The notes under the pieces: generated by a model
Databases searched by the model: none
What the model was told of the DNA's origin: nothing
Seen by the model: the letters and a program-made list of their open reading frames with translations, nothing else
Program-made: the position numbers and the translations under genes
In this document: in pieces, positions 1,038 to 13,138 of the stretch
How the letters are laid out: the number at the start of each line of letters is the position of its first letter
How positions within the stretch are numbered: position 1 is the stretch's first letter
Assembly (NCBI GenBank): GCA_028697015.1
Contig: JAQVFW010000014.1
Span: forward strand, 1-13,509
Source: Minisyncoccota bacterium
GTDB taxonomy: Bacteria; Patescibacteriota; Minisyncoccia; Minisyncoccales; GWA2-38-27
DNA length: 13,509 nucleotides
Reading direction: 5' to 3'

Positions 1038-2576
1038 TTATTTTTGTGATTTTTTTAATATAAAATTAAAGAAACCTTTATCTATCTTTGCTTTTTTAAT
1101 ATCTTCTTCCACGTTTTGGGAATTTTCCCTAATGTACTGGTAAACAATTCTTTCTCCTGCCGACTGTTCTTTTTCTTCTTCTTTATTTGAATCTTTCTTT
1201 AATTTACTGGAAATAAAATTAAAGAAACCTTTATCTATCTTTGCTTTTTTAATATCTTCTTCCACGTTTTGGGAATTTTCTCTGATGTACTGGTAAACAA
1301 GATTTTCATCTGCAGAAATCTCATTGGAAAAATCGCTTGAAACAAAACTTTCTTCTAAGATGGAATCAATTTCGCTTATTCTTCTTTTCCCTAAATTTCT
1401 CCTTTCTTCCAGCTCTCTCTTCTTTTTATTAATGTCGGAAATTTGTTCTTCTATCGCCTTAATAGCTCTTTCAGCATCCCAAGCTTTCTTTTCAATGGTT
1501 CTTCTTTTATTTTCTATTTCCCATCTTTTCTTTTCAATATCCCTTTTCTTTTGAGGATTGCTTTCGGATTTTTCTTCTTCTTCCGTTTTTTCTTTTTCCA
1601 GATTAATGTTTTTCTCTTCTTCCGATATTTTTGAAAGAAGATTAAAAAGAACTATTTTCTTTTTTTCTAAATTATACTCTTTAACATCCAGTTCTCTTTC
1701 TTGGCTGAAAATAATATCAAGATTCTTTTGAATAATTGACCTTTCTTCTTCAATTTTCGCCTTATTTTCTATCTTCTCTATCTTTTTTATTTCTTCTTTT
1801 ATCTGCTCTTCTTTGTTATCTTTTCCTATAGATAAAGAAGATTCTTCAAGACCCTTTATCTCGTTGTTTATTTTTTGGATACCTTCCTCCTCTTTCCATC
1901 TTTTCAGCTCTATTTCTTTCCTTTTTTCCTCTGTTTCCCATCTTCTTTCTTTTATAGCTTTTAAAAGATCTTTATCTTCTTCTCTTTTTTCTTCATCTTC
2001 AATTTGTCTTGCCTGATTTTCAATTTCTTTTTCTTGTTCAAGAATAACGGAAATATTTTCTTCAATTGATTCCTTTTGTAAAATAAGCTCGTTTATTTTT
2101 GCAATAACAGGCTTTTTTAAAGCTAAAATATTCTGTATTTTTTCTTCAAGTTTAATCTTTCTCTGTTTTAAGACATCTTCTTTATTTTTTCCTTTTATCT
2201 CTGCCTCTTTTTCAATTTCTCTTTCAAGATTTCTAAGTTCATTTCTTTCTCCTTCTGTTTTTTTTAGCGCTTCTTTTCTTTTTTGAAGTTCTTCCTTCTT
2301 TTTTTCCTCCTCCTCTTCCTCTATTTTTTGCCTTTCTTCTTCTTTTCTTTTTTGAAGTTCTTCCTTCTTTTTTTCAATTTCTATTTTTACCGATTCCTCT
2401 TTTTTTTCTTCCGGGGTTTTTTCAGAAAGGACCGGTTTAATTTTTCTTTCGCCTTCTGTTTTCTTTTTTAAAAATACTCCATCATCCAAAAGACCTCCTT
2501 TAGCAAGAATATCAATGTCTTTTTTCATTGTATTAATCATTGTGCTGCTTATAGGATCGTTTTGGTCTTTTTCCAT
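1038..2576 (-). CDS. hypothetical K/E-rich long coiled-coil protein (512 aa) with internally duplicated C-terminal module
   Basis: 1.5-kb uninterrupted ORF co-oriented with its neighbours. The protein is dominated by EELQKRKE-type heptad-like K/E repeats. The C-terminal region contains the 28-aa module IVYQYIRENSQNVEEDIKKAKIDKGFFNFI twice, encoded by two 86-bp DNA direct repeats that are in frame (copies 153 bp apart). The N-terminal ~40 aa (MINTMKKDIDILAKGGLLDDGVFL) is non-repetitive. No catalytic motifs were recognised. Caveat: stop codons are rare on a purine-rich strand, so ORF length alone is weak evidence. Confidence 0.5.
   Translation of the reverse strand: MEKDQNDPISSTMINTMKKDIDILAKGGLLDDGVFLKKKTEGERKIKPVLSEKTPEEKKEESVKIEIEKKKEELQKRKEEERQKIEEEEEEKKKEELQKRKEALKKTEGERNELRNLEREIEKEAEIKGKNKEDVLKQRKIKLEEKIQNILALKKPVIAKINELILQKESIEENISVILEQEKEIENQARQIEDEEKREEDKDLLKAIKERRWETEEKRKEIELKRWKEEEGIQKINNEIKGLEESSLSIGKDNKEEQIKEEIKKIEKIENKAKIEEERSIIQKNLDIIFSQERELDVKEYNLEKKKIVLFNLLSKISEEEKNINLEKEKTEEEEKSESNPQKKRDIEKKRWEIENKRRTIEKKAWDAERAIKAIEEQISDINKKKRELEERRNLGKRRISEIDSILEESFVSSDFSNEISADENLVYQYIRENSQNVEEDIKKAKIDKGFFNFISSKLKKDSNKEEEKEQSAGERIVYQYIRENSQNVEEDIKKAKIDKGFFNFILKKSQK
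1062..1300. repeat. two 86-bp direct repeats (1062-1147 and 1215-1300, 2 mismatches) inside the 3' end of the 512-aa coiled-coil ORF
   Basis: Direct comparison of aaaattaaagaaacctttatctatctttgcttttttaatatcttcttccacgttttgggaattttcc(c/t)ct(a/g)atgtactggtaaacaa at both positions. The 153-bp offset (3 x 51) preserves the reading frame. Confidence 0.9.
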
Positions 2577-2625
2577 AATCTTTTTAAAAGAAAAGTAAGT
2601 ATTCTTTTAAAAAATAACTCTTCTT

Positions 2626-4743
2626 TTATTTTTCTTTACCTTTTTTGTCCTTGTTTTCAATCAAGGCAAGATTTATTCTTCCTTGATTATCAATTGATAT
2701 GACTTTGACAGAAACGGTATCTCCTACGCTTACAACGTCCTCCACTTTATCAACTCTACGAGAAGCAAGTTTTGATATATGGATAAGCCCGTCTTGATTT
2801 GGAAGAAGATTGACAAAAGCTCCAAAATCGAGAATTCTTTCAACTTTTCCTTCAAACACTTCTCCAACTTCAACTTCTCTTACTATGTCTTTTATCATTG
2901 AAAGGGCTTTTTCTGCTAAGCTTGAATCCTCTGAAGTAATAAATACAAGTCCCGTTTGCTGGATATCTATGGAAGCTCCCGTCTTTTCAACAATCTCGTT
3001 TATGACTTTTCCTCCGGGTCCGATAACCTCTCTAATTTTCTCAGGATTTATCTCTAAAGTCAAGATTCTCGGAGCAAAAGGAGATAATTGTTCTCTTGGT
3101 GCAGGAATAGTTTTTTCCATTTTTTCTAAAATTTGAAGCCGCGCATCTTTTGCTCTCAGAAGGGCTTCCTTTAAAATCTGTCCTGTAATTCCCTTTACTT
3201 TGACATCAAGCTGAATGGCGGTTATTCCTTCTTTTGTCCCGGCAATTTTAAAATCCATATCTCCGTGATGATCTTCCGGTCCTTGAATATCTGTCAAAAC
3301 TTCATAATTTGAAGCGTCTTGTTGCATAAGTCCGATTGCAATTCCGGCTGCAGGTCTTTTAATGGGCACTCCTGCATCCATAAGGGCAAGACAGGAGCTT
3401 GATATTGAAGCCATTGAAGTTGAACCGTTTGAAGAAAGCATTTCCGAAACGATTCTTATCGTATATGGAAAATCCTCAAAAGCAGGAATAAGAGGAAATA
3501 TCGCTTTTTCAGCAAGCATCCCGTGCCCTATTTCTCTTCTTCCCGGGCCCCTCATCGGTTTTGTTTCTCCGACAGAAAAAGGAGGGAAGTTATAGTGGTG
3601 CATAAATCTTTTTTTTCCGGCTATTTCCATTCCTTCTATAAGCTGCTGGTCTCCGGGAGCTCCTAGGGTTAAAATAGAAAGTCCTTTTGTCTGTCCTCTT
3701 GAAAAGAGAGCTGAACCGTGAGTTCTCGGCAGAAGGCCGACTTCACATTTAATTTCCCTAACCTCATTCATTTTTCTTCCATCAACTCTTTTTTTGAATT
3801 TTACAGCTCCCTCATGAATCAGCAGGTCAGTTTCTTTTTCTATAAATTTTCCAATGTATTTTTCTTTTGAATCTTCTTTGTATTTTTCATTTACAAAAGA
3901 TACAAGCTCTTTTTTTATTTTTTCCACTTCTTCAGATCTTTTTTTCTTGTCATTTTGAAAAAGAGCTTCTCTAAATCGTTCTCCTAAAAATTCCCTCATT
4001 TCCTTCTCGAGAATTTCATCTTTTTGAGGCAAAGAGATTTCTTTTTTCGCCTTTCCTATTTCTTTTGCTATATTTTTTTGGAAATCAATCATTTTTTCCA
4101 AATATTCTCTTGCAAAATCAAGGGCCTTTTCCACTTCTTCTTCTTTTGCTTCATTAAGGCCTCCTTCTATCATGTTTATAAGAAGATTTCCATTTTCAAT
4201 AATTCCGGTAAAGACAATGTCAAATTGGCTTTTTTCCCTTTCTTCGTAAGTGGGATTTACAACAAAAGAGCCGTCTACCTTTCCCACTCTTATTACTCCG
4301 ACAGGACCATTCCAAGGTATGTCAGATATTGCAAGGGCTATAGAAGAAGAAAGGATACCCAAAACATCCGGATCATTTTTTCCATCCCATGAAAAAACCG
4401 TTGCCACAACCTGTATCTCAGAAGAAAGTCCTTCGTCAAAAAGAGGACGAATAGTCCTGTCTATAATACGGGCATTGCAAATTGCCTCATCAGAGGGCCT
4501 GCCTTCTCTTTTTATATATCGGGCCCCTTTTATTTTCCCGGCTGCATAATATTTTTCTTCATAATCAACCATAAGCGGGAAAAAACCCATATCTTCCCTT
4601 TCTCTGCCCATAACACAGGTTGACAAAACCAGAGTATCCCCGCAACTGACCATTATATTCCCGTTCGTCTGTTCGGCAATATTTTTATTTTCTACTTCTA
4701 TCTTCTTGCTTCCAAGATCTAAAGTAAATTTCTTATTCTCCAT
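2626..4743 (-). CDS. pnp: polynucleotide phosphorylase / polyribonucleotide nucleotidyltransferase (PNPase)
   Basis: Full PNPase architecture is readable in the translation: two RNase PH-like domains (e.g. FSVGETKPMRGPGRREIGHGMLAEKA; GSTSMASISSSCLALMDAGVPIKRPAAGIAIGL), then a KH domain (GPGGKVINEIVEKTGASIDI) and a C-terminal S1 domain (GEVFEGKVERILDFGAFVNLLPNQDGLIHISKL). The preferred start is the internal ATG at 4743 (MENKKFTLDLG...), preceded by AGGAcaaaaaaaa. The ORF-track start at 4803 adds an unlikely 20-aa basic extension. Confidence 0.95.
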   Translation of the reverse strand: MENKKFTLDLGSKKIEVENKNIAEQTNGNIMVSCGDTLVLSTCVMGREREDMGFFPLMVDYEEKYYAAGKIKGARYIKREGRPSDEAICNARIIDRTIRPLFDEGLSSEIQVVATVFSWDGKNDPDVLGILSSSIALAISDIPWNGPVGVIRVGKVDGSFVVNPTYEEREKSQFDIVFTGIIENGNLLINMIEGGLNEAKEEEVEKALDFAREYLEKMIDFQKNIAKEIGKAKKEISLPQKDEILEKEMREFLGERFREALFQNDKKKRSEEVEKIKKELVSFVNEKYKEDSKEKYIGKFIEKETDLLIHEGAVKFKKRVDGRKMNEVREIKCEVGLLPRTHGSALFSRGQTKGLSILTLGAPGDQQLIEGMEIAGKKRFMHHYNFPPFSVGETKPMRGPGRREIGHGMLAEKAIFPLIPAFEDFPYTIRIVSEMLSSNGSTSMASISSSCLALMDAGVPIKRPAAGIAIGLMQQDASNYEVLTDIQGPEDHHGDMDFKIAGTKEGITAIQLDVKVKGITGQILKEALLRAKDARLQILEKMEKTIPAPREQLSPFAPRILTLEINPEKIREVIGPGGKVINEIVEKTGASIDIQQTGLVFITSEDSSLAEKALSMIKDIVREVEVGEVFEGKVERILDFGAFVNLLPNQDGLIHISKLASRRVDKVEDVVSVGDTVSVKVISIDNQGRINLALIENKDKKGKEK

Positions 4744-4855
4744 TTTTTTTGTCCTTTTGCGAGAAACGAATGCTTTACGAATCCACCAAGTTGCATTTTG
4801 CAATTTATCTGAATTTGTAAAAAATTCGCACCCCCGCAGAAAGAACGGATTAAAA

Positions 4856-5359
4856 TTATTTGCTTAACAAAAACCTTTCCTTTTTTTCAGAAAGGTCTAT
4901 AAATTCGTCTGCCGTTTCTCTAAGTAAAGAAGAAGAAGACCTTGAAAAGGCCATTACTTCCACTCTTTTTCCCTGATTCTTTAAATATTCGACAAGAGCT
5001 ATAAAGTCCCCGTCTCCAGAGGCAAGAACAAGAACATCAACACTTGGAGCAATTCTTATAGCGTCAATTACTATTCCAACATCCCAATCCGCTTTCTTCG
5101 CTCCTCCATAAAATTCCTGCAAGTCCCTTACTCTTGTTTCTATACCTAAGTTTGTAAGAGCTTCAAAAAAGGGCTTTTCTTCTCCTGTTTTCGTTTTTAC
5201 AACGTAACCAAAAGCTCTTATTAAAGACCTCTTGCCTATTGCCGTTTTAAGTATTTCTTTAAAATTTACCCGGGATCTGTGAAGATTTTTTGCCGAATGG
5301 TAAAGGTTTTGGACATCTATTAAAACGCCTACTCTTTGTCCACTGTGCTTTATTACCAT
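4856..5359 (-). CDS. NYN-domain (LabA-like/DUF88, PIN-like) predicted ribonuclease, 167 aa
   Basis: PIN/NYN-like arrangement of conserved acidic residues: VLIDVQNL (Asp near the N-terminus), ADWDVGIVIDAI and LASGDGDF (Asp clusters) in an alpha/beta pattern of about 160 aa. It lies between rpsO and pnp on the same strand. Confidence 0.75.
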   Translation of the reverse strand: MVIKHSGQRVGVLIDVQNLYHSAKNLHRSRVNFKEILKTAIGKRSLIRAFGYVVKTKTGEEKPFFEALTNLGIETRVRDLQEFYGGAKKADWDVGIVIDAIRIAPSVDVLVLASGDGDFIALVEYLKNQGKRVEVMAFSRSSSSLLRETADEFIDLSEKKERFLLSK

Positions 5360-6297: not shown

Positions 6298-7302
6298 TTA
6301 AAAGCGGTGTCCGACTCTATACTTTGCCAAAGGATTTGTTCCTCCTCTAACCTCAAAATGCAAATGGCATCCGGTTGCTCCGATAGTATAACCCGTATTT
6401 CCCATATATCCTATCAGTGCCCCTTGGGAAACTTTTTGATTTACTGAAACGGAAATCTTTGAAAGATGTCCATAATAGGTAACCATTCCGTTTGGATGAA
6501 GTATTCTTATATACCTTCCTCCAATGTTATGATATCCCGTAATCTGTATTGTCCCTGCTGCAGATGCATAAACAGGAGTGCCACAGCTATTTGCAATATC
6601 AACCGCATTGTACCAATGAAGACCCTGGGTAATATATCCTTTTACGGGAACAATAAACCCCGAAAAAGAAGGTTGAACAGGAGAAGCGGGTCGAATAACC
6701 GGCATTTCTCCGTTTGGAACAACTATTATATCCCCAATATAAATGCTTCCTTCGTCTGGCAATTCGTTAAAAGAAACAATATCTTCCGCTTTGGCTTTGT
6801 ATTTTTTAGCTATTTCGCTAACCGTGTCTCCTCTTTTCACTTCATGAACAACTCCGGAAACAGGAGGAATGGCTAATTTTTGTCCAGTTTTTAAAACTGA
6901 CTTACTATTTAAATTATTTGCCCAAAGAATTGTATTTACGGAAATATCAAACTTTTCGGCAATACTTGAAATCGTTTCTTCTTCTTTTATTTCATATTCA
7001 ATAATTTCTTTGCCTCTTTCTTCAAAACTTGCAAGCGTTCCAAAAGAAGAATTTGTTAGGTATATCAAAGGAGAAGAGGCAGCAGCAATACTGCTATCTT
7101 CAATAAAACTCATTTCCGCTTCTACTGTAATAAAATTCCTTGAACTTTCGACAAATAAGATATCTGAGGCTCTGGCAGTTTCTCCAAAATAAAAACTTCC
7201 CTTTGAAGAAGTTTTAGTTGCCATAAGTGCCAGAATGGCCAGCATGGCTATTATTGTAAAAAAAATCGCCTTTTTTCCTATACTCGGCTCCGTTTTCAAC
7301 AT
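6298..7302 (-). CDS. membrane-anchored LysM-LysM-M23 family peptidoglycan DD-metalloendopeptidase
   Basis: N-terminal transmembrane helix (AIFFTIIAMLAILALMA). Two LysM repeats: YEIKEEETISSIAEKFDISVNTILWANNL...GQKLAIP and HEVKRGDTVSEIAKKYKAKAEDIVSFNEL...GDIIVVP. C-terminal M23 (LytM-like) domain with HxxxD (HWYNAVD) and HxH (GCHLHFEV), plus GYMGNTGYTIGATG. The start was moved to the in-frame ATG at 7302, which is preceded by GGAGaaat. The ORF-track start at 7338 is a TTG codon. Confidence 0.85.
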   Translation of the reverse strand: MLKTEPSIGKKAIFFTIIAMLAILALMATKTSSKGSFYFGETARASDILFVESSRNFITVEAEMSFIEDSSIAAASSPLIYLTNSSFGTLASFEERGKEIIEYEIKEEETISSIAEKFDISVNTILWANNLNSKSVLKTGQKLAIPPVSGVVHEVKRGDTVSEIAKKYKAKAEDIVSFNELPDEGSIYIGDIIVVPNGEMPVIRPASPVQPSFSGFIVPVKGYITQGLHWYNAVDIANSCGTPVYASAAGTIQITGYHNIGGRYIRILHPNGMVTYYGHLSKISVSVNQKVSQGALIGYMGNTGYTIGATGCHLHFEVRGGTNPLAKYRVGHRF

Positions 7303-7347
7303 ATTTCTCCATGATACCCGCAAGAAAAGAAAAGTCAAGACAATTTT

Positions 7348-8205
7348 ATGGAAATCTTAAAAATACTGTGTTATTATAAAAAAATGGGAAACAAAATTAA
7401 AAAAGAGCTCCAAGGGAAAAAACCTCTTAAAAAAATGGGGCAGAACTTTCTCTTGAATAATTTTGCTATTAAAAAAATAGTGGAAACTGCAAAAATAAAA
7501 AGGAACGAAACAGTTTTGGAAGTTGGTCCCGGAACAGGAATTCTTACCGAAGAACTTTTAAAGACAGGTGGAAAAATAATAGCCGTTGAAAAGGACAAAC
7601 AGCTTTGCTCTCTTTTAATAAAAAAATTCAAAGGAATAAAAAATATTGAGATTGTAGAAGAAGACATATTGGAATTTAATATTGATTTTCTTCCTCAAAA
7701 CTACAAGGTTGTAGCGAATATTCCTTATTACATCACTTCTTTTTTTATAAGAAGATTTTTAGAGAGTAAAAACAAACCCAAAAAGATGGTTTTGACCATT
7801 CAAAAAGAAGTTGCAAACAGAATCTGCGCAAATCCCCCAAATATGAGTCTTCTTTCTGTTTCCGTCCAATATTATGCCAAACCAAGATTGATAATGAAAA
7901 TATCAAAAAATTCTTTTTGGCCAAAACCGAAGGTTGATAGCGCAATTATTAAAATAACTCCTTTTCTTTTGCCTAAGGAAGAAAAAACTGATTATTTCTT
8001 TAAAGTGGTAAAGGCAGGTTTTTCTCAACCAAGAAAACAAATTATAAACAATCTTTCAAAAGAGCTTAATGTCCCTAAGGATAAAACAATAGAATTGCTT
8101 TTGAAAAACGGATTTAGCCCTAAAAAAAGACCGGGAGATTTCAGTATTGAGGATTGGATGAAATTAACAAACTGTTTTAATTCTGATAATTTACTATTGC
8201 TATAA
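7348..8205 (+). CDS. rsmA: 16S rRNA (adenine1518-N6/adenine1519-N6)-dimethyltransferase RsmA/KsgA
   Basis: KsgA signature GQNFLLNNFAIKKIVETAKI...LEVGPGTGILTEEL (SAM-binding motif I) and NIPYYITS (motif IV, NxPY). Length is typical (~285 aa). The start is uncertain between 7348 and 7384 because conserved homology begins at ~K..MGQNFL. It is arranged divergently from the M23 gene. Confidence 0.9.
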   Translation: MEILKILCYYKKMGNKIKKELQGKKPLKKMGQNFLLNNFAIKKIVETAKIKRNETVLEVGPGTGILTEELLKTGGKIIAVEKDKQLCSLLIKKFKGIKNIEIVEEDILEFNIDFLPQNYKVVANIPYYITSFFIRRFLESKNKPKKMVLTIQKEVANRICANPPNMSLLSVSVQYYAKPRLIMKISKNSFWPKPKVDSAIIKITPFLLPKEEKTDYFFKVVKAGFSQPRKQIINNLSKELNVPKDKTIELLLKNGFSPKKRPGDFSIEDWMKLTNCFNSDNLLLL

Positions 8206-8224
8206 AAATATATATTAGTATAAT
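8197..8224 (+). promoter_or_regulatory. candidate sigma70-like promoter (TTGCTA -35, 16-bp spacer, TATAAT -10) 11 nt upstream of the ATG of the 811-aa membrane protein gene, implying a very short or leaderless 5' UTR
   Basis: -35 TTGCTA at 8197-8202 and -10 TATAAT at 8219-8224. The ATG is at 8236 and no Shine-Dalgarno sequence lies between them. AT-rich background means the false-positive risk is high. Confidence 0.3.
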
Positions 8225-8235
8225 ATTATAAGAAT

Positions 8236-10671
8236 ATGTCTTTGTTTAAAAACAACCTAAAAAGGAGAAAACTTTTAACATTTGTTTCTTTTTTTATTTT
8301 TTCTTTTATATTTTTTACTCCCCTTATTGCAAAAGGATTTGATCTTGGAATAGGAGAGGCCTTTGATACTTTTACAAGATATCTTTTAAGCTTGGTGCTA
8401 ACTATACCTCTTTTTTTTATTGGAATTATTCTAATGATACTCGTTTTGTTAGCCCAGCTTCTTGCTCTTTTAACAAGATCCATATTGATACTTGTGATGA
8501 GTCCCTACTTTATATCATGGAGTTATACTCAGCCTGCAACAAATCCGATAATAAGCCAAGGACTGCTGGTTACTCAAAGCTTAATGAATATGATTCTTGT
8601 TTTAGCCCTTCTTTATATAGGAATTGTGACAATACTTGGACTTGAAAGCTATAACACAAAGAAACTACTTATAACTTTTATAGTTATAGCTCTTCTTGTA
8701 AATTTTGCTCCCGTAATTACCGGACTTATTGTTGACCCTTCTAATATATTGATAAGATACTTTGTTACTCAAATTCCAGGAGGAGACGGAGGATTTATAA
8801 GCCGTACAGTTACCGCTCATAATTCTATTTTAGGAGGATTTTCACATATGGAAAATATTTGGGATGCTCTCAAAGGAGGCCTTCTTTTGACAACTGCCGG
8901 AATGGTGTTTAGAGCATCCGGACTTTTGATAGTTTATCTTCTTATTTCCCTAGCTTATCTTGGATTTATCGTCATTTTCACGGCAAGATATTTTGCAATT
9001 TGGCTACTTGTAATTTTGTCTCCTATTGCTTTTGTCTGCTATATCCTCCCTGAAACCCAAGGGATAGCAAGAAAATGGTGGAATGCTTTTATACAATGGA
9101 CCTTTATCGGAGTAACTGGGGCTTTTTTTCTTTATCTTGCCGAAGGATTTGCCATGATGAACCCCGCTTTAATTTATAGCTCCCTTACAATCCCTCAAGG
9201 AGGCGGATTTCTTTTATTAAGAGATCTTGTTGCACTCTTGGCTCCTGCTTTATTTGGAGTAATGCTCGCAATAATAGGACTAATGGTATCAGTATCAACA
9301 AGTGCTATAGGAGCTCAAATGGTACTTGGCGTTTCAAAAAAATATGGGAAAGCAGGAGCAATAAAAGGAGGAAAGTTTTTGACAAGGAGCATTCCTTCTG
9401 GATTGAAAGAACAAATGGCAAAGCAAACAAAAACCACCCTGCCTGGATTTGAAGGAAAAAGCGGAGGAGGTAAATTTGCTACAGGACTAGGATATGCAAC
9501 AGGTGTTATTCCTGCATATTGGGCAACGCGTAAAGCGGTAGGAGCAGCAGGAGTAGTATTAAAAGAAACAGAAAAAAAAGACAGAGCTCAAGCAAAAGAA
9601 AAATATAAAGGATCAACAATTGAAAAGAAAATGCAAGGAGTAAATTCTCCTTTTGAAAAAGAAAGAACAGCAGCACTTGTTATGGCAAATGAAGAGGGAA
9701 ATATAGGAGAAATGAAGAAAAAATACGGTCTTACAGATGATACGATAAAAGAGATTATAAAAGAAACAAGAGAACATTCCCCTGACGAATTTAAGAAGCT
9801 TAGAAAAACGATGCCTCAATATGCCAAAGAGCTGGTTTCCGACGATGAGCTTGCTCAAAAAGTTACAGATAAAGAAATTAAAGAACGTCTTGACAGTTCT
9901 TATGGAATAACAGACAAAGATGAGGTAGATAAAATACTTAAAGATGAAGAAGAAAGAAACAGAATTGCCAGAGAAGTTATTGATGATAAATTTCCGGATG
10001 AAAAAGACAAAGACAGAGCTAAACTTGATATAATTATAAGTCAGGTAAAAAAGAGCGATGTTGAATCTTGGTCTTCTGATGTTTTTGATGATGAAGAAGT
10101 AGTAAAAAGCATTTTAGTAAATGCAAAAGTTCAAATTATACCTGAAATAGCTGAAAATTTTGGAGAAAAAGCTCGCGAAAAGATACAAGAACAAGTAGAT
10201 TCTGGAGCAGAAATAAGCGCAAGTATGCATAGTTATCTTACGTCAAATGCAGGAAGAGCAATTTTCCCTATTGAAAATATACCACCTAGAACAACTTCAA
10301 CATCCAGTACACCCTCTACGCCATCTGGCTCAACTCCTTCAACACCTAGCACACCCTCTACGCCATCTGGTCCAACTCCTTCAACACCTAGTACACCCTC
10401 TACGCCATCTGGTCCAACTCCTTCAACACCTAGTACACCCTCTACGCCATCTGGCTCAACTCCTTCAACACCTAGCACACCCTCTACGCCATCTGGTCCA
10501 ACTCCTTCAACACCTAGTACACCCTCTACGCCATCTGGTCCAACTCCCCGAACAAGAGGAGGATATACACCCTCTACGCCATCTGGTCCAACTCCTTCAA
10601 CACCTAGTACACCCTCTACGCCATCTGGTCCAACTCCCCGAACAAGAGGAGGATATGGAAAAAATCCATAA
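8236..10671 (+). CDS. large polytopic membrane protein (~9-11 TM helices in the first ~365 aa) with a charged cytoplasmic-like central domain and a C-terminal Pro/Thr/Ser tandem-repeat tail; TrbL/VirB6-like topology (hypothesis)
   Basis: 2.4-kb ORF. N-terminal signal-anchor (LLTFVSFFIFSFIFFTPLIAKG), then many hydrophobic helices up to ~aa 365. Residues ~370-690 are K/E/D-rich and hydrophilic. Residues ~690-811 are TPSTPS(G/S)PTPSTPS repeats with two PRTRGGY insertions, ending GGYGKNP. TAA stop, followed by a strong terminator. No LPXTG or other sortase signal. Confidence 0.75.
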   Translation: MSLFKNNLKRRKLLTFVSFFIFSFIFFTPLIAKGFDLGIGEAFDTFTRYLLSLVLTIPLFFIGIILMILVLLAQLLALLTRSILILVMSPYFISWSYTQPATNPIISQGLLVTQSLMNMILVLALLYIGIVTILGLESYNTKKLLITFIVIALLVNFAPVITGLIVDPSNILIRYFVTQIPGGDGGFISRTVTAHNSILGGFSHMENIWDALKGGLLLTTAGMVFRASGLLIVYLLISLAYLGFIVIFTARYFAIWLLVILSPIAFVCYILPETQGIARKWWNAFIQWTFIGVTGAFFLYLAEGFAMMNPALIYSSLTIPQGGGFLLLRDLVALLAPALFGVMLAIIGLMVSVSTSAIGAQMVLGVSKKYGKAGAIKGGKFLTRSIPSGLKEQMAKQTKTTLPGFEGKSGGGKFATGLGYATGVIPAYWATRKAVGAAGVVLKETEKKDRAQAKEKYKGSTIEKKMQGVNSPFEKERTAALVMANEEGNIGEMKKKYGLTDDTIKEIIKETREHSPDEFKKLRKTMPQYAKELVSDDELAQKVTDKEIKERLDSSYGITDKDEVDKILKDEEERNRIAREVIDDKFPDEKDKDRAKLDIIISQVKKSDVESWSSDVFDDEEVVKSILVNAKVQIIPEIAENFGEKAREKIQEQVDSGAEISASMHSYLTSNAGRAIFPIENIPPRTTSTSSTPSTPSGSTPSTPSTPSTPSGPTPSTPSTPSTPSGPTPSTPSTPSTPSGSTPSTPSTPSTPSGPTPSTPSTPSTPSGPTPRTRGGYTPSTPSGPTPSTPSTPSTPSGPTPRTRGGYGKNP
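10309..10656 (+). repeat. near-perfect tandem array of 42-bp units (acaccctctacgccatctgg[c/t][t/c]caactccttcaacacctag[c/t]) with higher-order periodicity, inside the 3' end of the 811-aa CDS
   Basis: Full units at 10309, 10351, 10393, 10435, 10477 and 10567. Truncated 29-bp units followed by the 19-bp insert ccgaacaagaggaggatat lie at 10519 and 10609. Units 1 and 4 carry ggctca (Gly-Ser); the others carry ggtcca (Gly-Pro). This gives a 126-bp super-repeat (10309-10434 = 10435-10560 except for the end of unit 6) and an exact 90-bp duplication (10477-10566 = 10567-10656). Confidence 0.95.
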
Positions 10672-10688
10672 CATTTTTTAAAAAACAA

Positions 10689-10717
10689 AAAAGGAGTCAA
10701 AGACTCCTTTTATTTTT
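10689..10717. terminator. bidirectional intrinsic terminator between convergent genes (811-aa membrane protein gene and SPFH gene 1)
   Basis: aaaaaaggagtc-aaa-gactcctttt: an 8-bp stem (aaggagtc/gactcctt, 10691-10698 and 10702-10709) with a 3-nt loop. T-runs follow on both strands (plus: ttatttttag; minus: ttttttgtttttt). Confidence 0.75.
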
Positions 10718-11785: not shown

Positions 11786-11856
11786 TAATTTTCAAGGTTC
11801 CAACTAAAAAAGTTCTAATTAAAAATATAGCACTTCTTTTTGTTTTTGTCAAATTT
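11786..11856 (-). repeat. copy 1 of a ~70-bp direct repeat (second copy 13069-13138, ~97% identical) immediately upstream of SPFH gene 1
   Basis: Plus-strand aattttcaaggttccaactaaaaaagttctaattaaaaatatagcacttcttttt(g/a)tttttgtcaaatt occurs at both loci. Confidence 0.9.
11824..11852 (-). promoter_or_regulatory. sigma70-type promoter within repeat copy 1: -35 TTGACA (11852..11847), 17-bp spacer, -10 TATATT (11829..11824), driving SPFH gene 1
   Basis: The minus-strand reading is aaatTTGACAaaaacaaaaagaagtgcTATATTtttaattagaac. It has a consensus -35 and exact 17-bp spacing. A leader of ~40 nt reaches the GGAGG Shine-Dalgarno sequence and the ATG at 11774. Confidence 0.5.
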
Positions 11857-13068: not shown

Positions 13069-13138
13069 AATTTTCAAGGTTCCAACTAAAAAAGTTCTAA
13101 TTAAAAATATAGCACTTCTTTTTATTTTTGTCAAATTC
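13069..13138 (-). repeat. copy 2 of the ~70-bp direct repeat, carrying the same promoter (-35 TTGACA 13134..13129, -10 TATATT 13111..13106), ~240 nt upstream of SPFH gene 2
   Basis: See copy 1. The 17-bp spacer differs by one base. Downstream of it is a ~200-nt A/T-rich leader before the SPFH gene 2 Shine-Dalgarno sequence. Confidence 0.85.

Follow-up and report, generated by a model that had tools for sequence, protein, structure and literature searches.

The question raised by this locus is to which protein family, and to which cellular machine, a membrane protein of 811 amino acids (aa) from a Minisyncoccota bacterium belongs. Its gene lies in a stretch of 13,509 nucleotides (nt) of contig JAQVFW010000014.1 (assembly GCA_028697015.1), which as a whole is referred to here as the window, and an earlier note made from the letters of this stretch had proposed, from topology, a component resembling TrbL/VirB6. 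Our analysis indicates that the gene very probably encodes an extended core subunit of the VirB6/TrbL family, in a chromosomal, apparently relaxase-less and origin-proximal type IV secretion system (T4SS) of Patescibacteria, the organism being of the Paceibacteria type. The coordinates of all features are collected in Table 1.

Family membership of the 811-aa protein

The ATG start of the open reading frame (ORF) is backed by 84 aligned homologues, in which M1 is nearly invariant, and the ORF, its hydropathy and its composition agree with what had been described before, i.e., a membrane protein with a hydrophobic N-terminus, a charged centre and a repeat tail. The hydropathy scan gave a signal-like segment (residues 14–31) followed by seven to eight hydrophobic segments, the last of which ends at residue 351; because of this, the 9–11 transmembrane helices counted in the earlier note have to be seen as a slight over-count, while the multi-helix nature of the protein stands. 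AlphaFold, run on residues 1–420 with the 84-sequence alignment, gave a mean predicted local distance difference test score (pLDDT) of 84.2 and a predicted template modelling score of 0.74, with the hydrophobic segments modelled as helical, and with at least five hydrophobic helices and a VirB6-like fold the protein is polytopic. In the solved VirB6 of plasmid R388, only two N-proximal helices are within the membrane and the bulk of the protein is outside it (PMC12857230), and by analogy some of the hydrophobic helices of the 811-aa protein need not span the membrane.

The homologue set consisted of 84 proteins from a large protein collection, where the best non-identical match had an E-value of 1e-94; one homologue is a 100%-identical partial protein (P0001, 678 aa) from a metagenome-assembled genome labelled ‘Candidatus Pacebacteria’. 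At E ≤ 1e-3, the family comprises 18,341 cluster representatives. Most homologues at 30–43% identity carry a precomputed match to PF19590 (TrbL_3) and a few to PF04610 (TrbL), and three of them (P0019, P0023 and P0056) also pass the TrbL gathering score locally, with 27.1, 29.1 and 29.7 bits vs. 25.9. Since the query itself and its exact orthologues fall below the detection of TrbL and TrbL_3, the protein is a divergent member that is recognised only through its family.

A profile made from the full-length alignment was uninformative against the PDB, with coiled-coil and helical-repeat matches dominating, because the charged region drew coiled coils. The profile of the hydrophobic domain, searched against 177,635 PDB sequences, returned a sole match at E ≤ 10, namely TrwI, the VirB6 protein of R388 (E = 2.2e-4). 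When compared by hhalign with an alignment of six plasmid TrwI-type VirB6 proteins, the same domain gave E = 2.7e-5 and a probability of 74% over 45 columns. Within the shared core motif, R251, P263, A265 and W281 are invariant across the 84 sequences, and hhalign places P263 on P181 and W281 on W199, both of which are invariant in the six TrwI-type proteins. The predicted structure points to the same relative, as the top three Foldseek matches in the PDB were TrwI chains (probability 0.98–0.99, E about 0.05, target TM-score 0.40–0.45). A transporter was considered as well and rejected, with Foldseek probabilities of at most 0.06 for MATE and MurJ; no transporter family scored. The TrbL/VirB6 assignment, which had been drawn from topology, is thus supported by four independent tests (the Pfam families of the homologues, the profile and hhalign comparisons, the fold and the gene context), and these comparisons of sequences and models support the view that the 811-aa protein belongs, as a divergent member, to a family already known, which acts in a known system.

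The C-terminal extension and its repeat tail

Beyond the last hydrophobic helix lie 460 residues, made up of a linker, an alpha domain (about 240 aa) and a 121-aa repeat tail. Over residues 386–690, the composition is 13% K, 11% E and 8% D, as expected from the K/E/D-rich central region named in the earlier note, while the charge at its beginning is mostly positive, with 16 K/R vs. 7 D/E in residues 386–470. In all homologues, the first 40 residues past the last hydrophobic helix hold 3–11 K/R (at least five in all but five of them) and 0–4 D/E. AlphaFold on residues 355–700 with trimmed homologues gave a disordered stretch (355–436) and an all-alpha domain (439–679) with pLDDT above 90, which is conserved across the family and has no solved relative. 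The best 150 of the 18,341 cluster representatives are mostly 600–800 aa long, which makes the extended form the usual one. Ten short homologues (P0020, P0033, P0038, P0040, P0048, P0052, P0060, P0067, P0070 and P0075) end in one or two CxxC..CxxC zinc ribbons (Pfam zinc_ribbon_2/DZR), which replace the alpha domain, and the tails of many homologues are basic and rich in Gly/Arg/Pro, resembling the unresolved C-terminal tail of TrwI itself. The C-terminus varies widely within the family, and at one related locus (L041, 4094–7873) a TrbL_3 protein reaches 1259 aa.

The tail proper (residues 691–811) consists to 94% of P/T/S/G. It is encoded by eight 42-bp units at 10295–10637, with 48-bp variant units extending to 10656, and the units are 88% alike. 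Three NCBI assemblies (L037, L038 and L039), with DNA about 99% identical to the window, encode orthologues of 813, 753 and 799 aa, which differ from the 811-aa protein at 0–2 positions in the first 685 residues; the remaining variation lies solely in how many whole repeat units are present and in which order, and it is in frame. The organism of the window is also represented by the assemblies GCA_041673425.1, GCA_041675705.1 and GCA_041669285.1. With lengths of 753–813 aa over four near-identical assemblies, the tail is indeed variable, as the earlier note had called it. Two further ORFs over this region, at 10233–10700 (minus strand) and 10247–10681 (plus strand), were dismissed as other-frame by-products of the repeat.

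That these differences in length are short-read assembly artefacts of the repeat and not strain variation seems rather doubtful. All four versions do come from metagenome assemblies, the repeat is 340–380 bp long with units that are much alike, and the public partial copy P0001 stops just before the repeat, suggesting a contig break; however, the four independent assemblies each cross the repeat into identical flanks, the changes are whole in-frame units and unit order with no frameshifts, and units with this degree of likeness are still divergent enough to assemble. As for the side of the membrane on which the extension lies, Pro/Thr/Ser tandem repeats with varying copy number are characteristic of surface proteins, and linkers outside the cell have Pro/Thr/Ser repeats more often. 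An alpha domain and tail lying outside the cell would make the VirB6-like core carry a strain-variable host-contact or wall-spanning element, in line with the in-frame variation in copy number between near-identical strains, with a positive-inside pattern across the loops that is not fully consistent and leaves the side of the extension uncertain, with the position of the R388 VirB6 described above, and with the extended VirB6 of Rickettsiales, discussed as exposed or processed (Bao 2009, as cited in PMC12857230). We hold this outside location to be unlikely. A K/R-rich segment stands right after the last hydrophobic helix in 83 of 83 homologues, the ten short members carry at this place a zinc ribbon, which is a module usually found in the cytoplasm, other members have the basic, TrwI-like tails, and no sortase, LPXTG or wall-binding motifs were found in the tail.

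Because of the K/R-rich stretch, the zinc-ribbon members and the TrwI-like tails, the extension is probably cytoplasmic, which appears about twice as plausible as an outside position, and it probably serves as a docking or regulatory module. To go further, the C-terminal module could be a functional innovation of the Paceibacteria-type VirB6, with the alpha domain as a cytoplasmic docking platform or an extracellular host-contact part, and the variable tail tuning reach or specificity between close populations; we put this forward as a speculation that is more probably wrong than right by a wide measure. If the docking variant were true, the alpha domain would recruit cargo or a VirB4/TraC-like ATPase module, without a relaxase or an adjacent coupling protein.

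Neighbouring genes and the replication origin

Along the window, the order is pilin, LysM–M23 hydrolase, rsmA/ksgA and the virB6-like gene, with PNPase, rpsO and an NYN-domain gene also upstream, and with two SPFH genes downstream on the opposite strand and the end of dnaN at the window edge. The pilin-topology protein and the hydrolase were found where the earlier note had placed them (Table 1). The 125-aa pilin matches PF18895 (T4SS_pilin) with E = 3.4e-4, which is below the gathering score, but 11 of its 12 syntenic orthologues have PF18895 (best E 1.9e-11) and nine have PF04956 (TrbC). Its residues C29, C34, C37 and the C-terminal C125 are invariant in all 12 orthologues, which suggests disulfide bonds in the mature pilin. 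The LysM–M23 hydrolase holds a matching position in most related loci and, by this conserved position, is a candidate for the VirB1-type partner of the T4SS.

Related loci were surveyed by tblastn with seed proteins, and three layouts appeared among the 36 loci obtained. In one of them (L002, L022, L031, L035, L036 and L041), genes for PrgI-like (VirB3), TraC-like, VirB4 and pilin proteins follow 2–6 kb after the virB6-like gene, while in another (L015, L021 and L028) VirB4 is encoded just beyond dnaA, about 10 kb off. The third layout, in about a dozen loci, has the exact order of the window and no VirB4 within 10 kb. In GCA_030617105.1, which has the gene order of the window, a VirB4 profile search placed VirB4 beyond dnaN-dnaA-rnpA-yidC, about 12 kb from the virB6-like gene and on one contig with it, in an operon that also encodes PrgI-like and TraC-like proteins, a Cys-rich protein and two T4SS_pilin proteins, and therefore the T4SS is split over both sides of the origin. 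Taken together, L040 (1–18894), L005 and L037 show this split form, in which virB3-like, traC-like, virB4, Cys-rich and pilin genes belong to one side of yidC-rnpA-dnaA-dnaN, and the small pilin gene, the hydrolase gene and the virB6-like gene to the other.

On the longest contig of the window organism (L037, 15.5 kb), dnaN is followed by dnaA, rpmH, rnpA and yidC, and the genes on the far side, which adjoin yidC and encode two proteins with pilin domains and a Cys-rich one, match those of GCA_030617105.1. VirB2-like genes, for which the earlier note had proposed to look, are present nearby, with the pilin in the window and two larger T4SS_pilin-domain genes on L037. At 2419–5097 and 1–2326, beyond yidC, L037 codes for four proteins without an assigned family: two of 420–470 aa, whose N-terminal domain is T4SS_pilin-like and which have poly-Glu runs (12 and 7 consecutive E), the Cys-rich one, which has at least 545 aa, and a further one of 204 aa. 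A homologue search with the Cys-rich protein gave no match. The VirB4 of the window organism is unseen because its contigs end too early; since the far-side genes of L037 match as far as the Cys-rich gene, where the contig ends, VirB4 is expected in its genome. The earlier note had made its proposal depend on a T4SS ATPase in the genome, and so far this ATPase is seen in the syntenic relatives and not in the window organism itself.

Among lineages, VirB4 is 65–92% identical vs. 30–43% for the VirB6-like proteins (P0085–P0204 vs. P0002–P0084), so that, by these identities, two components of a single machine appear to differ greatly in rate. Many records from L006 to L036, L016 among them, are titled ‘Candidatus Woesearchaeota archaeon’ or ‘uncultured Candidatus Saccharibacteria’, yet carry a locus of the Paceibacteria/Nealsonbacteria type, so their taxonomic labels look unreliable.

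Several results weigh against reading the gene as a VirB6 of such a system. The 811-aa query matches nothing relevant in Pfam, NCBIfam or PHROGs (weak matches to Mor and to an unknown PHROG were dropped as irrelevant), hmmscan with the full protein and with residues 1–397 gave no TrbL at E ≤ 10 in a local library that apparently lacks PF19590, and the exact orthologues have no precomputed Pfam match, so that the Pfam TrbL search proposed earlier was negative for the query itself and positive for homologues. Moreover, the sequence tie to canonical VirB6 is one stretch of 45–140 residues, the hhalign probability is only 74%, neither the loops nor the repeats fix the side of the extension, and no VirB4, VirB3 or TraC-like gene is present in the window or on L037, both of which end before the expected position. 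It could be argued from the missing direct Pfam match and the Foldseek E-values of about 0.05 that the protein is an unrelated polytopic one (a transporter or a member of a family of unknown function) and that its likeness to VirB6 is helical-bundle noise. This seems very improbable to us, as TrwI was the only PDB sequence matched by the profile, the invariant residues coincide with those of the TrwI-type family, homologues score above the gathering threshold of Pfam TrbL, relatives repeatedly have the gene physically linked to those for VirB3, VirB4 and VirB2, and the transporter folds scored so low in Foldseek. A gene of a conjugative or integrative mobile element, outside any core chromosomal system, would be the other possibility, as VirB6/TrbL are classically plasmid genes or genes of integrative and conjugative elements, and the Patescibacteria VirB4 clade is related to the MPF_FATA conjugation systems, MPF standing for mating pair formation (PMC12102498). 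That possibility is hardly tenable, and we rejected it because the synteny with housekeeping genes is conserved: the gene has rsmA on one side and SPFH/dnaN on the other, with PNPase, rpsO and the NYN-domain gene upstream, and its gene order is identical in a dozen related genomes. In addition, its GC content is like that of the flanks, repeat aside, no relaxase, integrase or coupling protein was found among the scanned window ORFs, and relaxases are rare in Patescibacteria (PMC12102498). Nor was a relaxase found in the called genes of L037–L041, without profiles of the MOBscan type and on an incomplete genome.

Table 1. Positions of the features of the window, with strand and basis.
Feature	Position	Strand	Basis
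VirB2/TrbC-like pilin, 125 aa	5832..6209	-	signal peptide, two hydrophobic helices, four conserved Cys
LysM + peptidase M23 wall hydrolase	6298..7338	-	Pfam LysM 1e-24, Peptidase_M23 1e-26
Promoter-like TTGCTA-16-TATAAT	8197..8224	+	consensus scan, 10/12 matches; best in region
Extended VirB6/TrbL_3-family gene, 811 aa	8236..10671	+	ORF and translation, ATG start
Signal-like N-terminus and hydrophobic VirB6-like domain, residues 1-352	8236..9291	+	
Core motif RY.AIW.LVILSP.AF..YILP.T.....WW..FIQW, residues 251-296	8986..9123	+	common to TrwI 170-214 (alignment of hidden Markov models)
Basic predicted-disordered linker, residues 353-437	9292..9546	+	pLDDT <50
Folded all-alpha domain, residues 438-680, specific to this Candidate Phyla Radiation (CPR) family	9547..10275	+	ends in conserved N..L..YL.S.A motif
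Tandem repeat, 42-bp units and 48-bp variant units, encoding TPSTPSTPSTPSGP / TPRTRGGY tail	10295..10656	+	Tandem Repeats Finder
Terminator-like hairpin, 10-bp stem, T-runs on both strands	10689..10711	.	consensus scan

Regarding expression, the promoter-like site (Table 1) overlaps the 3' end of rsmA and ends 11 nt ahead of the ATG. Transcription by read-through from rsmA is equally possible; the consensus scan found no terminator between rsmA and the virB6-like gene, and the gap between the two genes in relatives is 8 nt. The earlier note had spoken of an own promoter and a near-leaderless transcript. The promoter-like site is there, but nothing sets the gene apart, as none of the 12 window genes has a GGAGG-type Shine-Dalgarno sequence within 25 nt of the start codon and no terminator follows rsmA, and a leaderless transcript as a special feature was rejected. 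Several window genes, including that of the pilin, have a -10-like box about 10 nt upstream of the start, and genes of this genome may generally have short leaders or none. The terminator noted before was recovered, as a consensus match, in the hairpin between the convergent VirB6-like and SPFH genes, which could terminate in both directions.

Some other features of the window do not touch the virB6-like gene. A 69-nt direct repeat (11787–11855 and 13069–13137, 99% identical), reading TTGACA-17 nt-TATATT on the minus strand, resembles a duplicated promoter-like element ahead of each of the tandem SPFH/Band7 genes. As the listed TTG start of the first SPFH gene (11852) falls inside this repeat, its start is probably the Met pair at codons 27–28 (MMILLKIF...). 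Two ORFs are without family assignment, one of 512 aa and rich in Glu/Lys (1038–2576, minus strand) and one of 182 aa, charged and C-terminally anchored (488–1036), and the relatives L004 and L005 have ORFs without family assignment of similar size and placement. Within the 512-aa ORF, a 153-bp tandem duplication (1060–1354, 1.9 copies, 80% matches) doubles the C-terminal peptide ..RIVYQYIRENSQNVEEDIKKAKIDKGFFNFI...

Proposed role and comparison with known systems

Judged by the homology to TrwI of R388, the first 350 residues most likely assemble into a pentamer in the middle of the complex of the cytoplasmic membrane. This VirB6-like pentamer would sit above an assembly of VirB3-like proteins and the VirB4 ATPase, and could act both as a platform that recruits and polymerises VirB2-like pilins, one of which is encoded 2 kb away, and as a funnel for the passage of cargo, and the wall would be opened by the LysM–M23 hydrolase. 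The remaining 460 residues are a lineage-specific extension, with the basic linker, the alpha domain (about 240 aa) and the strain-variable Pro/Thr/Ser tail. In known systems, VirB6 forms a pentamer at the stalk base, recruits VirB2, and serves as a pilus platform and as a funnel or valve for cargo (PMC12624023), and in a preprint VirB2-like pilins of Gram-positive bacteria are modelled on pentamers of VirB6 (bioRxiv 10.64898/2025.12.18.695078).

Patescibacteria depend on host cells, and in the sole genetic study available, as cited in PMC12102498 and PMC12857230 (Wang 2023, on S. epibionticum ML1), T4SS genes including virB6 were essential for epibiotic growth; this evidence comes from a Saccharimonadia strain only. 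The present locus is a clean example of a divergent VirB6 core in a Paceibacteria-type organism, and it shows that standard annotation with hidden Markov models misses a VirB6-like protein, that a T4SS can be divided across the replication origin, and that a VirB6 may combine a large conserved alpha domain with a tail that differs between near-identical strains, all of which are handles on how a conjugation-derived machine became repurposed. As the family and the system are already described, the gain is incremental, and the poorly described envelope system that the earlier note had seen here is not one, given the Patescibacteria T4SS survey published in 2025.

That survey (Quinonero-Coronel et al. 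2025, PMC12102498) describes VirB4, TrsD, PrgI/VirB3, VirB6 and VirB2-like pilins, often near dnaA, dnaN, rnpA, ksgA and rpmH, with relaxases being rare, and most Patescibacteria VirB6 fit the MPF_T VirB6 profile and not PrgH. The window shares with these systems the origin-proximal site (rsmA/ksgA upstream, dnaN at the window end, and dnaA-rpmH-rnpA-yidC on L037) and the VirB2-like pilins, and the partners VirB4, TrsD/TraC-like and PrgI/VirB3 were seen in its relatives. A difference is that the genes of this lineage lie on both sides of the origin, about 12 kb separating virB6 from virB4.

TrwI of R388 (PDB 7O3V/8RT9) is, like the 811-aa protein, polytopic and helical, has the core motif with the coincident invariant Pro and Trp, and ends in a low-complexity basic tail, as many family members do. 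Identity in the structural alignments is about 9–16%, and TrwI is a plasmid-borne protein of 342 aa from a diderm, with VirB5, VirB7–VirB10 and a relaxase as partners, whereas the window protein is 811 aa long, chromosomal and from a monoderm-type CPR organism, with a signal-like N-terminus and the added alpha domain and repeat tail. The extended VirB6 proteins, which have at least five hydrophobic helices followed by a large hydrophilic, partly unstructured C-proximal region of unknown role (PMC12857230), include RvhB6/VirB6-2 of Rickettsiales and the MPF_FA proteins TcpH and Orf15 (700–900 aa), and their architecture is like that of the 811-aa protein; this likeness is one of architecture. 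The Patescibacteria VirB4 groups with MPF_FATA, whose VirB6 (PrgH) has about 300 aa (PMC12102498; PMC12857230). The Legionella protein DotA (Dot/Icm system, PDB 9NGY) is part of a type IVB system in a diderm pathogen, is much larger and has other partners (IcmX). No description of the C-terminal alpha domain or of the variable repeat tail was found in the passages of PMC12102498 that were consulted, and these two features, together with the origin-split layout, are the only ones in which the present locus goes beyond what was found described.

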